Origin: Fidelibacterota bacterium | GTDB taxonomy: Bacteria > Fidelibacterota > UBA2242 | Direction of reading: 5' to 3' | NCBI GenBank assembly: GCA_030655795.1 | Contig: JAUSPJ010000271.1 | Location: 1-26,449, forward strand | DNA length: 26,449 bases | In this document: piece by piece, positions 16,109 through 21,542 of the stretch | How positions within the stretch are numbered: position 1 is the first letter of the stretch | Layout: every line of letters starts with the position of its first letter | Translations under genes and position numbers: made by a program | Notes under the pieces: model-generated | Seen by the model: only the letters and a program-made list of their open reading frames with translations | The model's database searches: none | Told to the model about the DNA's origin: nothing

Positions 16109-18367
16109 CTATTTCCGATTCAGGGGAGTTGGTTTCTTCAAACTATCTGTTTCAACACTGTCATCTTCGGATTCCACCGGCCCAAACATGGTTCCGGCAT
16201 CCAGTTTCATACTGAAAAGCGATACAATTCTGATAATATCATTGTAACCGATGAAAACAAAATCATCGGTCCCGTTAAAGTGAATTCGGGGACGAATATA
16301 ATGGGTTTTGTTACTTATTATGACCTCAATCTTTGCCGAATCAATCACCGCACTCTGTTTCACAAAGCCGGGTATTCGAACACGCTTATTCTGATCCAGC
16401 ACGGGTTCCGGTAATACAATGGTCGCCAGCGTATCAACGATAACACTGATGTTCCCGGTATCGGTAATGGCAAAAATCGTGTCATTAATAAACTGATAAC
16501 CGGAATCGAGACTATCGGAATACAGGGGAAAATAATCATACGTTGAAATCAGAATATCCACCCGGCCGGACAGCGGAAAATCATTAGTTATCTCGGAAAT
16601 AATCGCCGCTTCAATCAAGCCGCGTTGGAGTCTTTGCCGGGTTTCTGCGTCCATGGGAGCCAGCTTCGACGATGTCACCGGGATAAAGGTCATATCATTG
16701 ATCTGCATGACAAAAGGCACAATCACTTCGTAACTGCCCCAGAAGGATTTATTTACCTGCAGCCGGGATGTATCATCGGCCGGAATTGCCGCTTTACCGA
16801 AAACCATCATCGAATCGGGTACCAGATTAAAAATCGGCGCAATATCGATCACTATATTCGACTGTTTTACCGGCTCCTGATCACTGGCTCTATAGATGAT
16901 TTCATTTGCAGAAATTACTTCCGGCGCTCTGTTTTCCTTATACCCGACAATATTAAATTCCAGTTCCGTCTGAGCCTGGATTTCATTGAACAGATGTAAC
17001 TTCAGCAGAACTTCGCCAAAATTGACGTCGCCAAAACCGCTTGGGATATCACTGATGGTAATCGGTGGAATAGCGAAAGATTCATTAAAAAACCCGACGA
17101 TTTCCTTGAATTTCATAATGGCAATATTCAGTGAAAAATTCAGCATACCGTCACCGAAATCAAGGGGAATCGTTGACACTGTATCGCCGTCATCCGGTAA
17201 AATCGTGATCGTGGTTACAACCAGAATCGAATCGACAATCGTGGTGGGATCGACATTCCGCAGCGTATCCAGGTCAAGACGTTCCGAACCCTGGGAAACC
17301 TCACCGGTGTTGAGTATTGCATCGATTGTCAATGCTCCCGATTCGTCATAAAAATTATAAAAGACAAGCTCCATATTCATATTGACAGGTAACGTATTTT
17401 CGATTCGCCAGCTGATTAAATTGGTATCCGGGCTTAACGTGGGTGTTTCCCCGAGTATTCCTTTGAATATTGTATTGTTTGATTCCGGTAATTTCTGGGC
17501 GGTACGGGTTTCGATGGGTTCCGGTTTGCCGGTAAAACTCTCGATTTCATTGATACTGACATCGACAGTCAACGTCATATAGGGATCGGTATTGGCCGGG
17601 ATTACTAACGGCGCCTCGTCTGTTCCGGCCAGGATTGCCGTTATGGAGACGGCGATGGAATCCTGTAATTGTTTACCCCGTAAGTCGCTGTTGCTGGATC
17701 GGGTTTCGCCGGCCGGAATCGTTTCATAAAACGACTCGGCAATAATCGATCCGTCTTTATTTTTCATCTGGATAACGACCGAGTCCAGGTCCATCAGCGT
17801 TTCGTTTTCTACGCTTGTGGAAAATTCACCATCCCCGATCGTCAGGTAGTCCACCCGTTCAAAATAGGGAATTCCGTCTTTGTCAAATATCTGGTACGGC
17901 ATTTCCTGATCAATCAGCGGTGTACGCGGGATTGCCGGAACAGTCAGGGTATCCGCTCGTGGCAAAGAGATACCGGCAAGGGTCGCCAGGCGAAGTTTTT
18001 GAGAGAATGTAATTTCTACCGGATTACTGGCCTGATCCATATCGCCAAAATCCTGCTGAAAGGCGACATTCGTGGCGGTGGGAATCACAAAAATATCCTC
18101 CGTCAGCGTCACCGTATCCAGCAACCCTTCGAATTTAAAATACAGTGAATCCGACAGACTATCGCCAAAAATGCCGTTAGTAGAATCCTGTAAATCCCCA
18201 AGGGGTAACGACACGTCTGTTAGTGGTAGGTTAATTGTCTGATAAAACTTGGGTAATTCCGGAGGCTGGAACGGATCGTATGTACAGCTCAGAGACCACC
18301 ATATCAGGGATAAAATCACCAGGATAAGGCTTGTTTTATATCTAAATGGAATTCGAAATTTCATCAC
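16109..18367 (-). CDS. Large lipoprotein of unknown function, copy 2 (752 aa)
   Basis: Basic N-region, hydrophobic stretch and lipobox WSLS-C. Acidic, beta-rich mature part, paralogous to 19842-21542. Confidence 0.85.
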   Translation of the reverse strand: MMKFRIPFRYKTSLILVILSLIWWSLSCTYDPFQPPELPKFYQTINLPLTDVSLPLGDLQDSTNGIFGDSLSDSLYFKFEGLLDTVTLTEDIFVIPTATNVAFQQDFGDMDQASNPVEITFSQKLRLATLAGISLPRADTLTVPAIPRTPLIDQEMPYQIFDKDGIPYFERVDYLTIGDGEFSTSVENETLMDLDSVVIQMKNKDGSIIAESFYETIPAGETRSSNSDLRGKQLQDSIAVSITAILAGTDEAPLVIPANTDPYMTLTVDVSINEIESFTGKPEPIETRTAQKLPESNNTIFKGILGETPTLSPDTNLISWRIENTLPVNMNMELVFYNFYDESGALTIDAILNTGEVSQGSERLDLDTLRNVDPTTIVDSILVVTTITILPDDGDTVSTIPLDFGDGMLNFSLNIAIMKFKEIVGFFNESFAIPPITISDIPSGFGDVNFGEVLLKLHLFNEIQAQTELEFNIVGYKENRAPEVISANEIIYRASDQEPVKQSNIVIDIAPIFNLVPDSMMVFGKAAIPADDTSRLQVNKSFWGSYEVIVPFVMQINDMTFIPVTSSKLAPMDAETRQRLQRGLIEAAIISEITNDFPLSGRVDILISTYDYFPLYSDSLDSGYQFINDTIFAITDTGNISVIVDTLATIVLPEPVLDQNKRVRIPGFVKQSAVIDSAKIEVIISNKTHYIRPRIHFNGTDDFVFIGYNDIIRIVSLFSMKLDAGTMFGPVESEDDSVETDSLKKPTPLNRK

Positions 18368-18413
18368 GGAGCATTGATCTCGGGCAATCCGCAGTTCCTG
18401 CAGATATCAGTCG

Positions 18414-19838: not shown

Positions 19839-19841
19839 ATA

Positions 19842-21542
19842 CTATCCGGTTGTATCCGTTACTGTTTGATTCAATACCGCTGGATCAAACAGCAAATTTA
19901 AGTAACTCTTGATTTCAATCCGGTAATCGCTCTGTAAGAATACCCGGCTGGTATCTGGATTCAGCAAATGAAATTTTGGCAGAAAATAACAGGTGTCCGC
20001 AATCAGGGCCAGTGCGCTGGAATCGGCAAAATATACCTGATTATTCCAGCCGGCGGAAACCAGGGAATCATCCTGCATGGTCGCCAAGGGCAACTCAACA
20101 ACCGCCAGCGTATCGATAATCACCAGTTCTGTATCCGTACTGATATAATAAAGCGTATCATTGATATATTCAAAGCCGGTATAATTACTGGCCTCAGCGG
20201 AATCCGCCGGAAAGACCCGCTGATTTCCAATCAGGAGCAGCAGGGAACCGCGAAACGGGGTCCGGTTCGTGATGCTGATATCCAGCTGAGCGCCATTCTG
20301 GGACCGGCTGATATTAGAGCGGGTCAGGCTGTCTGTAATAAAAAACCGGGTTGGATTAGCGGCGGCCAATTGCATCTCTGCCGGTAATGTTATTAATAAT
20401 GGCGCATATAGCTGATAACCGACTGTAATTTTATCGCTGATACTGCTGCCGTCATATTGCATTAATGGCTGCGCGGCTTCAACATAAAACGTGATGCTGT
20501 CCGGAAGAACTGCCATAACAGGCGCAAGGTCCAGCCGGTATGCTGTCCCACTGATAGTAAACGCTGAATCAATAGTTACATCTGTTCGGAACTGGTTTTT
20601 TCCGGAAATGACAATATGGATTGAATCATAGTCATCCACATCCTGAAGTGTAATATCGGCGTTGGCATTATCAAAAAGAATCCCGTCGGCACCGTCCGGA
20701 CTGCTGAGGAACTCCTGTCCGGTCAGGTATCCCGATGCAATCGGTCGGCCATAAAAAGAATCCAGGTGCAGTGTTCCTATCTCGAACCGTATCATTAAAT
20801 TCTGCGATAATTCTTCCCGGAGTGTATCCCGGATCATAATTGTCAGTCCGAATTCCAGGGAATCAATAAAGGATGTCCGGTTTTTGCTGAACAATGAGTC
20901 ATCAGCAAAACTCATCGTCAGTTGATTACTCAGACTGTCAGCCGCCAGGTGCAGTGTGTCAATCCAGATTGTATCGGTATCGGCATTTTTAAAATTACGG
21001 GCAATAATCTCAATATCCAGATCATTGCTGAGAGTCTCGGAAAGTATGGCTGAAATCCGGGCCGCATTTATTCCGGTCCCGTCATCGGAATTCAAGGCCC
21101 CCTTTACAACATAACAATTACGAGTACTGATTTTTCCAAGGGCTTTGGTCTGATAAACCGGAACAAGATCGTTTAAACCGGCTTTGATGGATGTTGCCAG
21201 GTTAATCTGTTTTTCGAAAGTCATACCCGGTATTTTCCAGTAGTCATCGGAAACCGACAACGCCTGCCCCGGTGTATCCACAGCAAAATAATACATTCTC
21301 TGATAGCTGGTATCCGCAAATATCTGATTGTTCCGGCTGGATGTGGAATCGTATACTAAATCCTGAAAAGAATAATCCTTCTTCAGCAATGGAATAATCA
21401 GTTTTGAATTCCAGCGCGCCGGTAAACGAGGCATTGTGGGCACTTCGAACTCACATCCGATTAATCCCCAGATCAGTAGGACACTCAGATAAATAAGTAA
21501 ATTCTTTTTCAGCAAAGACTTTTTACAAAATTGAATTTTCAT
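19842..21542 (-). CDS. Large lipoprotein of unknown function, copy 1 (about 566 aa)
   Basis: Lipobox GLIG-C followed by P..P.W…IPL. ATG 21542 is preferred over TTG 21554. The C-terminal region aligns with the 752-aa paralog. Confidence 0.85.
   Translation of the reverse strand: MKIQFCKKSLLKKNLLIYLSVLLIWGLIGCEFEVPTMPRLPARWNSKLIIPLLKKDYSFQDLVYDSTSSRNNQIFADTSYQRMYYFAVDTPGQALSVSDDYWKIPGMTFEKQINLATSIKAGLNDLVPVYQTKALGKISTRNCYVVKGALNSDDGTGINAARISAILSETLSNDLDIEIIARNFKNADTDTIWIDTLHLAADSLSNQLTMSFADDSLFSKNRTSFIDSLEFGLTIMIRDTLREELSQNLMIRFEIGTLHLDSFYGRPIASGYLTGQEFLSSPDGADGILFDNANADITLQDVDDYDSIHIVISGKNQFRTDVTIDSAFTISGTAYRLDLAPVMAVLPDSITFYVEAAQPLMQYDGSSISDKITVGYQLYAPLLITLPAEMQLAAANPTRFFITDSLTRSNISRSQNGAQLDISITNRTPFRGSLLLLIGNQRVFPADSAEASNYTGFEYINDTLYYISTDTELVIIDTLAVVELPLATMQDDSLVSAGWNNQVYFADSSALALIADTCYFLPKFHLLNPDTSRVFLQSDYRIEIKSYLNLLFDPAVLNQTVTDTTG

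Follow-up and report, generated by a model that had tools for sequence, protein, structure and literature searches.

General protein O-glycosylation of the Bacteroidota, with the LFG system of Bacteroides fragilis, was reportedly described by Fletcher in 2009 and by Coyne in 2013. The acceptor of this system is the tripeptide D-(S/T)-(A/I/L/V/M/T), and a 2025 review regards motif-driven O-glycosylation as unique to the phylum (PMC12871550). Serine is preferred over threonine as the acceptor residue, in the form DS(L/I/V) (PMC10897501). Glu or Asn does not replace the Asp of the acceptor, position 3 favours L, I, V, T, A or S, with F, G and P rare, and the motif is used on non-cytoplasmic proteins only. 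In Porphyromonas gingivalis, glycosylation falls mainly on domains that face the periplasm and bypasses the abundant proteins of the surface (PMC8729774). Glycosylation measured in Prevotella intermedia is heaviest on an OstA/LptD-like protein, with 10 sites, and on a Big_5 protein, with 7 (PMC10897501), and the S-layer glycoproteins of Tannerella are also counted among the hyper-glycosylated proteins of the Bacteroidota (PMC12871550). Here, we describe two neighbouring genes, LP570 and LP752, located in a 26,449-nucleotide stretch of DNA (contig JAUSPJ010000271.1, referred to as the window) from an uncultured Fidelibacterota (Marinimicrobia) bacterium, whose predicted lipoprotein products are unusually dense in this tripeptide. 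The patterns reported below make it likely that the tripeptides are acceptor sites of a Bacteroidota-type general O-glycosylation operating in the Fidelibacterota. Both phyla belong to the Fibrobacterota, Chlorobiota and Bacteroidota (FCB) superphylum.

A sequon was defined as the tripeptide D-[ST]-[AILVMT], with h denoting any of the six residues at position 3. The hand counts of a first-pass annotation of this DNA, namely 16 sequons in the 570-aa open reading frame (ORF) and 17 in the 752-aa ORF, proved exact, as did its estimates that 24 of the 49 Asp residues in the shorter ORF are followed by Ser or Thr and that TrpE, MetK and AhcY of the same window contain one sequon each. In the 752-aa ORF, 21 of 63 Asp residues were followed by Ser or Thr. 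The coordinates of the sequons in both proteins were verified by translation. One explanation would be that proteins rich in Asp, Ser and Thr gather the tripeptide by chance, and both proteins are indeed rich in Asp (8.4–8.6%) and in Ser plus Thr (16–17%). Composition, however, predicts only 3.5 sequons in LP570 and 4.2 in LP752, and none of the 200,000 residue shuffles performed per mature protein attained the observed counts (mean 3.6 and 4.2, maximum 13 and 15, respectively). The enrichment of Ser or Thr after Asp had binomial p values of 4e-7 for LP570 and 6e-4 for LP752, and the third residue then belonged to the h class in 16 of 24 cases (p 0.013) and 17 of 21 cases (p 2e-4), respectively. 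The source metagenome-assembled genome (MAG; labelled G000) comprises 2.03 Mb in 408 contigs and is 70% complete, the window being its contig C383. Among its 1,842 ORFs, the two lipoproteins ranked first and second by composition-corrected Poisson p. The reversed motif and the Asn and Glu variants were not enriched, and the excess is kept in all homologs. The shuffles and the control motifs thus refute an origin in chance or composition, to which we assign a practically negligible probability.

LP570 and LP752 are distant paralogs, with 23% identity over 463 aa (BLASTP, E 1e-14). Their alignment contains the three pairs of matching sites that had been named previously (INDTL/INDTI, IIDTL/IVDTL and LPDSI/VPDSM) and at least four further shared sequons, giving at least seven in all. 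The named homologs of both lipoproteins come from Marinimicrobia/Fidelibacterota MAGs and therefore sit outside the Bacteroidota-only range reported for the motif. The LP570 family is present in 18 of 31 related genomes. All of its 24 homologs retain the excess, with 14–21 sequons each, and the 43 homologs of LP752 retain 10–20 against 3.1–4.9 expected. Homologs of the two families span 36–87% identity, with 2.6–4.9 sequons expected overall. In LP570, 13 of the 16 sites are retained in at least 17 of the 24 homologs. When a conserved column was defined as one in which at least 50% of the family members carry the motif, 20 conserved sequon columns were obtained for the LP570 family and 15 for the LP752 family. 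The control motifs (N/E/G/S/K-[ST]-h, D-[AG]-h and D-[NQ]-h) gave 0–1 conserved columns and the reversed motif, h-[ST]-D, gave three. Within the sites, Asp hardly ever changes, Ser and Thr replace one another, and position 3 drifts among A, T, V, S, I, L and M.

The first-pass annotation had proposed a genome-wide comparison of exported and cytoplasmic proteins. For this, a pipeline of our own crude heuristics (greedy longest ORFs, a heuristic signal peptide or lipobox call, and a class-level composition expectation) was run identically on G000, on two better-assembled relatives, one from another genus (G009) and one from another family of the same order (G021), on Bacteroides hominis samples as the positive control, and on Escherichia coli K-12 and Sinorhizobium meliloti pSymB as the negative controls. 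The exported proteins of all three Fidelibacterota genomes were enriched, with observed-to-expected (o/e) ratios, exported versus cytoplasmic, of 2.06 versus 0.82 in G009, 2.00 versus 1.22 in G021 and a modest 1.36 versus 1.03 in G000. The corresponding values were 1.14 versus 0.98 in E. coli and 0.70 versus 0.51 in pSymB. The bulk exported-to-cytoplasmic ratio was rejected as a discriminator (1.17–1.26 in E. coli, 1.05–1.17 in B. hominis and 1.23–1.32 in G000); since it cannot tell a genome with known glycosylation apart from E. coli, it was replaced by tail counts, position profiles and ortholog controls.

Proteins with a composition-corrected Poisson p<0.01 were termed sequon-rich. Such proteins made up 12 of the 367 exported proteins in G000, 14 of 116 in G021, 8 of 45 in G009 and 9 of 234 in B. 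hominis, compared with 0 of 202 in the pooled negative controls (Fisher p 0.005, 4e-7, 7e-7 and 0.003, respectively), while the cytoplasmic class held 0–2 per genome (1 of 886 in G000). One protein called exported in G000, MetH (C140:498-4001; 9 sequons, p 0.004), is cytoplasmic and represents a false positive of the signal-peptide call. The sequon-rich proteins span unrelated families, including TamB, LptD, a periplasmic binding protein and T9SS (type IX secretion system) cargo with GH53, amylase, NAGPA and LTD domains. The top sequon-rich protein of B. hominis is a Big_5 protein (14 sequons in 395 aa), which, together with the LptD-like and Big_5 glycoproteins of P. intermedia, indicates that the sequon-rich tail tracks real glycoproteins where these have been measured.

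The position profiles of the pooled exported proteins of G000, G009 and G021 showed that each position of the motif is specific. At position 1 of X-[ST]-h, Asp had an o/e ratio of 1.61 (1.05 in cytoplasmic proteins), and the next residue, F, reached 1.19. At position 2 of D-Y-h, where Y is any residue, Ser (1.71) and Thr (1.48) stood above the next residue (1.18). At position 3 of D-[ST]-Z, the favoured residues were L (2.31), T (1.83), V (1.56), S (1.32) and I (1.28), A had a ratio of 1.07, and the low ones were G (0.78), F (0.73), W (0.71), Y (0.64) and P (0.64). This position-wise pattern was absent from the cytoplasmic proteins of the same three genomes, and the enrichment was likewise lacking in E. 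coli and S. meliloti. As a separate observation, the size classes of B. hominis behaved differently, with exported proteins of at least 500 aa being depleted in sequons (o/e 0.76) and those of 250–500 aa enriched (1.52), a pattern consistent with the published finding that abundant surface proteins tend to escape glycosylation (PMC8729774). In the Fidelibacterota, large exported proteins, T9SS cargo included, were the most enriched class.

Orthologs of a common fold were then compared across phyla. Full-length TamB contained 4 sequons against 4.1 expected in E. coli, 12 against 5.0 and 16 against 5.7 in the two B. hominis proteins, and 15 against 3.9 (G000), 12 against 3.5 (G009), 11 against 4.0 (G011) and 12 against 3.9 (G021) in the Fidelibacterota. 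LptD behaved similarly, with 1 against 2.8 in E. coli and 13 against 4.3 in G000. For the C-terminal ~840 aa of TamB, the o/e ratio was 1.80 in the Fidelibacterota (30 genomes from at least 15 families) and 1.45 in the Bacteroidota (30 genomes), compared with 0.71 in the Myxococcota (30 genomes) and 0.81 in the Spirochaetota (15 genomes); the control motifs stayed at or below 1.1. BamA and TamA of the Fidelibacterota were not enriched, and the DUF5723 barrels encoded beside the two lipoproteins hold 0–2 sequons, which fits a sparing of barrels and adds no support. An enrichment that is position-specific, restricted to exported proteins and retained when the fold is controlled for is what a related O-glycosylation system predicts.

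To place the sites within the proteins, AlphaFold2 models were used, which were all-β for both LP570 (predicted local distance difference test score 77) and LP752 (84). No Pfam family matched LP570, LP752 or any of the LP570 homologs, and the family profile retrieved no sequence from the PDB. The top PDB fold match of both models was 4h3w, BDI_1231 of Parabacteroides distasonis (E 1.6e-7 for LP570 and 2.6e-6 for LP752; Foldseek probability 1.0, template modelling score by target 0.39–0.45). Like both lipoproteins, BDI_1231 is a secreted β-sandwich protein of the FCB group with no assigned function; identity is only ~13% with no match at the hidden Markov model level, and the target spans less than half of either lipoprotein. 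The ESM Atlas look-alikes of BDI_1231 carry DUF4621 (PF15414), which hmmscan, run with an E cut-off of 1, did not detect in any of the 24 members of the LP570 family, and which had no match in 61 sampled Bacteroidota genomes. By DSSP, 15 of the 33 sequon Asp residues lie one residue before a strand or helix, compared with 13 of the 79 other Asp residues and roughly 7.5% of residues overall (Fisher p 0.002). Asp at this position places the sites at loop-to-element junctions. Buried β-hairpin turns had been named beforehand as a placement that would speak against glycosylation; in the models, about half of the sites appear to lie at loop-to-strand or loop-to-helix junctions, outside the centres of hairpin turns.

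Several points weigh against glycosylation. Its support is statistical throughout, and the gene and signal-peptide calls come from crude heuristics. Only small samples of G009 and G021 were analysed, and the lipoprotein loci are among them. The bulk excess in exported proteins of G000 is modest, its exported-to-cytoplasmic ratio (1.32) is near that of E. coli (1.17), and only exported proteins of 500 aa or more show the excess (o/e 1.72, versus 1.09 for 250–500 aa), a weakness to which fragmentation and false signal-peptide calls probably contribute. The positive control itself shows almost no bulk excess (exported o/e 1.08 in B. hominis). The Mann-Whitney p values of the TamB comparison (4e-8 and 4e-5) overstate the difference, as genomes within a phylum are not independent. 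The entire sequon excess of both lipoprotein families sits in conserved columns, with no low-occupancy, lineage-specific gains above the control motifs in either family; an excess of lineage-specific sequons as a sign of ongoing selection was accordingly dropped. The Asp excess one residue before secondary structure elements means that structural capping could explain part of the conservation in LP570 and LP752. Regarding the machinery, the metG loci of G009, G011 and G021, searched for an LFG-like arrangement of metG, wzx and glycosyltransferase (GT) genes, contained metG followed by two ~255-aa cytoplasmic genes, without wzx, and a tblastn search of the 70% complete G000 with the LFG genes of B. 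hominis gave no match for wzx and only weak matches for the glycosyltransferases.

The conservation and the position of the sites are the observations that a purely structural role, the main rival, would account for. The tripeptides would then be a device of the β-sandwich, in which Asp caps a strand or helix, Ser or Thr is its first residue and the aliphatic residue turns into the core, all being kept for folding. The alignment of sites between paralogs so far apart in sequence also favours such a role, yet we judge it unlikely. Asn, Ser, Thr and Gly normally cap too, but N/G/S-[ST]-h gave almost no conserved columns, and aromatic β-formers are depleted at position 3 where Thr and Ser are enriched. 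Unrelated families of exported proteins in the phylum share the enrichment, which cytoplasmic proteins lack. Structural rules are universal, whereas the signal is lineage-specific: TamB and LptD show the excess in the Fidelibacterota and Bacteroidota, E. coli shows it in neither protein, and the Myxococcota and Spirochaetota lack it in TamB. The two readings are also not exclusive, as sequons could become fixed at positions where capping permits them.

The search for an LFG-like glycan locus, which found none, also bears on whether the motif might be read in the periplasm by another system. It could mark a different modification of Ser or Thr, serve as a code recognised by chaperones or proteases, or be an Asp-Ser/Thr pair that binds cations and is preferred in the exported proteins of this lineage. 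The statistics indicate selection of D-[ST]-h in exported proteins, not its use. Nevertheless, we regard this explanation as quite improbable, and more so than a structural role. We know of no other system with a D-[ST]-h motif. All three positions match the experimentally defined acceptor of the Bacteroidota (PMC12871550, PMC10897501), the same families are sequon-rich in that phylum, where LptD-like and Big_5 proteins were measured to be hyper-glycosylated, and the two phyla share a superphylum and T9SS cargo domains. They also share a homolog of the O-mannosyltransferase TMEM260, described below. Of the related O-glycosylation system that the first-pass annotation had suggested, the part that stood is a Bacteroidota-type sequon apparently under selection in exported proteins; the surface location that it had also inferred gained no support, and the flippase and glycosyltransferase locus for which it had advised a search did not emerge as an LFG-type locus in the genomes examined. 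Outer-glycan loci vary even within the Bacteroidota. A Wzy_C/PglL-like ligase domain was rejected as non-discriminating: relatives have it, but so do the S. meliloti and E. coli controls, and it was not found in G000. The sugar-nucleotidyltransferase-like gene of the window, previously offered as weak support, is a generic enzyme for which no link was found, and ParE, AhcY and MetK lie between it and LP570.

In the O-glycans of the Bacteroidota, mannose occupies the reducing end; the transferase, core flippase and ligase of the system are undiscovered (PMC12871550). Human TMEM260 is a glycosyltransferase of the C-type (GT-C) and a protein O-mannosyltransferase acting on extended chains (PMC10214176; bioRxiv 10.64898/2026.03.17.711096). 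Its family, PF11028, was single-copy in 59 of 61 Fidelibacterota and 37 of 37 Bacteroidota genomes (188–272 bits, ~880–1180 aa), the bacterial proteins matching at E about 1e-65. Elsewhere, matches were weak and patchy in the Myxococcota (9 of 31) and Spirochaetota (11 of 31), and B. thetaiotaomicron was the only one of 14 named control genomes with a match. In G000, the gene (C158:2-1987, minus strand) lies outside the window, is cut by the contig end and encodes a product 35% identical to the B. hominis protein; it is directly downstream of recG, and the same gene order is found in G009. The gene is also retained in streamlined Fidelibacterota genomes of 0.9–1.1 Mb that have no TamB (G053, G059 and G065). 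Given the co-distribution over four phyla, the TMEM260-like GT-C protein is a candidate transferase, as a lead and not a proof. Human TMEM260 resembles the process proposed here in reading its sequon on an extended chain, and its mannosylated Thr at a β-strand, followed by Ile, resembles the loop-to-strand sites. It differs in that its sequon is a long IPT-domain signature, unlike D-S/T-h, and the bacterial homologs are linked to LP570 and LP752 by co-distribution only.

Taken together, LP570 and LP752 are paralogous, predicted all-β, multi jelly-roll lipoproteins, each followed by the gene of a DUF5723 outer-membrane barrel. After Sec export, a membrane glycosyltransferase would scan the still extended chain in the periplasm and glycosylate the Ser or Thr between Asp and a small or aliphatic residue. 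Selection may have fixed the sites at junctions between loop and strand, with the hydroxyl able to point outward there, and the two proteins would bear an unusually dense glycan coat. The candidate enzyme would be the single-copy TMEM260-like GT-C protein; we infer the glycan attachment, the identity of the glycan and the enzyme alike. A wider hypothesis is that Bacteroidota-type sequon O-glycosylation is an older trait shared with the Fidelibacterota and used more heavily there, that the universal single-copy TMEM260-like GT-C protein initiates it with mannose on unfolded exported chains, and that LP570 and LP752, each docked to a DUF5723 barrel, are among its densest substrates and part of a glycan-coated lipoprotein-barrel module. 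We advance this only tentatively and place its chances at somewhat below even.

The coordinates of the features in the window are collected in Table 1. The database copy of LP570 (P0005) begins MKIQF and that of LP752 (P0030) is 751 aa long. The Cys of the predicted lipobox is nearly invariant in both families (C30 in LP570, n=24 homologs; C27 in LP752, n=42), with at least 90% conservation in each, although the lipobox of LP752 is less canonical than that of LP570. Both proteins are predicted to be lipoproteins on the basis of a signal peptide ending in a lipobox with this conserved Cys. The lipoprotein and DUF5723 barrel genes form a pair that is present as a tandem duplicate (14749-21554, minus strand). 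In G011, G012, G014, G016, G020 and G021, a second and weaker LP570 match, the LP752-like paralog, lies a few kb away from the first, which suggests that the lipoprotein-barrel arrangement recurs in relatives. Among the 14 named control genomes, DUF5723 was matched in B. thetaiotaomicron only.

Table 1. Positions of the two lipoprotein genes, their predicted sites and neighbouring features in the window.
Feature	Position	Strand	Details
LP570, predicted lipoprotein gene	19842..21542	minus	566 aa from ATG 21542; ORF also opens at TTG 21554 (570 aa)
LP570 predicted signal peptide and lipobox L-I-G-C	21453..21542	minus	Cys codon 21453-21455; reads KKSLLKKNLLIYLSVLLIWGLIGC, followed by EFEV
LP570, 16 sequons	19848..21350	minus	Asp codons end 21350, 20975, 20960, 20939, 20900, 20864, 20828, 20627, 20570, 20501, 20333, 20204, 20159, 20114, 20069, 19856
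LP752, predicted lipoprotein gene, paralog of LP570	16109..18364	minus	751 aa from ATG 18364; ORF opens at GTG 18367 (752 aa)
LP752 predicted signal peptide and lipobox-like site S-L-S-C	18284..18364	minus	Cys codon 18284-18286; reads KTSLILVILSLIWWSLSC, followed by TYDP
LP752, 17 sequons	16139..18187	minus	Asp codons end 18187, 18163, 18151, 18118, 17953, 17785, 17662, 17269, 17233, 17185, 16816, 16516, 16483, 16435, 16342, 16162, 16147
DUF5723 (FadL-like) outer-membrane barrel after LP570	18414..19838	minus	Pfam PF18990, E 9e-11; 2 sequons
DUF5723 barrel after LP752	14749..16107	minus	Pfam PF18990, E 1.9e-9; 0 sequons
Sugar-nucleotidyltransferase-like gene	24751..25725	minus	Pfam NTP_transferase and hexapeptide; generic enzyme
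ParE-family toxin ORF	21573..21836	minus	87 aa; directly upstream of LP570
LptF/LptG permease gene	13519..14613	plus	Shortly precedes the lipoprotein and barrel genes
Peptidase S46 (dipeptidyl-peptidase 7-like) gene	1..1602	minus	Cut by the window start

Relative to the literature, the best explanation is probably a known system in a new phylum. The deep ocean and sediments harbour Fidelibacterota in abundance. If the explanation is correct, the O-glycosylation system predates the Bacteroidota, and many exported enzymes and other proteins of the Fidelibacterota (glycoside hydrolases, T9SS cargo, and TamB and LptD of LPS and outer-membrane biogenesis) would be glycoproteins, with consequences for their heterologous expression and structure prediction. 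The comparison of two phyla would narrow the search for the missing enzyme, the TMEM260-like homolog being directly testable, and LP570 and LP752 would offer compact and very dense natural substrates for enzyme tests.

Compared with the Bacteroidota system, the pattern in the Fidelibacterota shares the restriction to Asp, the preference of Ser over Thr, L, V, I, T or S at position 3, the disfavoured aromatic residues and the limitation to exported proteins. In both phyla, TamB/AsmA-like proteins and LptD are loaded, membrane-embedded barrels are spared and a TMEM260-like GT-C gene is present. The Fidelibacterota differ in having 16–17 sites per protein in the two lipoproteins and an exported o/e ratio of ~2 in two relatives, against ~1.1 in B. 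hominis. The T9SS cargo of the Fidelibacterota is rich in sequons; abundant cargo of P. gingivalis, by contrast, has few (PMC8729774). Unlike the LFG system, the one proposed here is predicted from sequence statistics, with no metG-wzx-GT locus found. To our knowledge, Bacteroidota glycoproteomes contain at most about 10 measured sites per protein; LP570 and LP752 have more predicted sites than any protein has measured ones and are unrelated in sequence to the hyper-glycosylated Bacteroidota proteins, which are likewise exported or lipid-anchored, β-rich and far above the proteome mean in sequon count.

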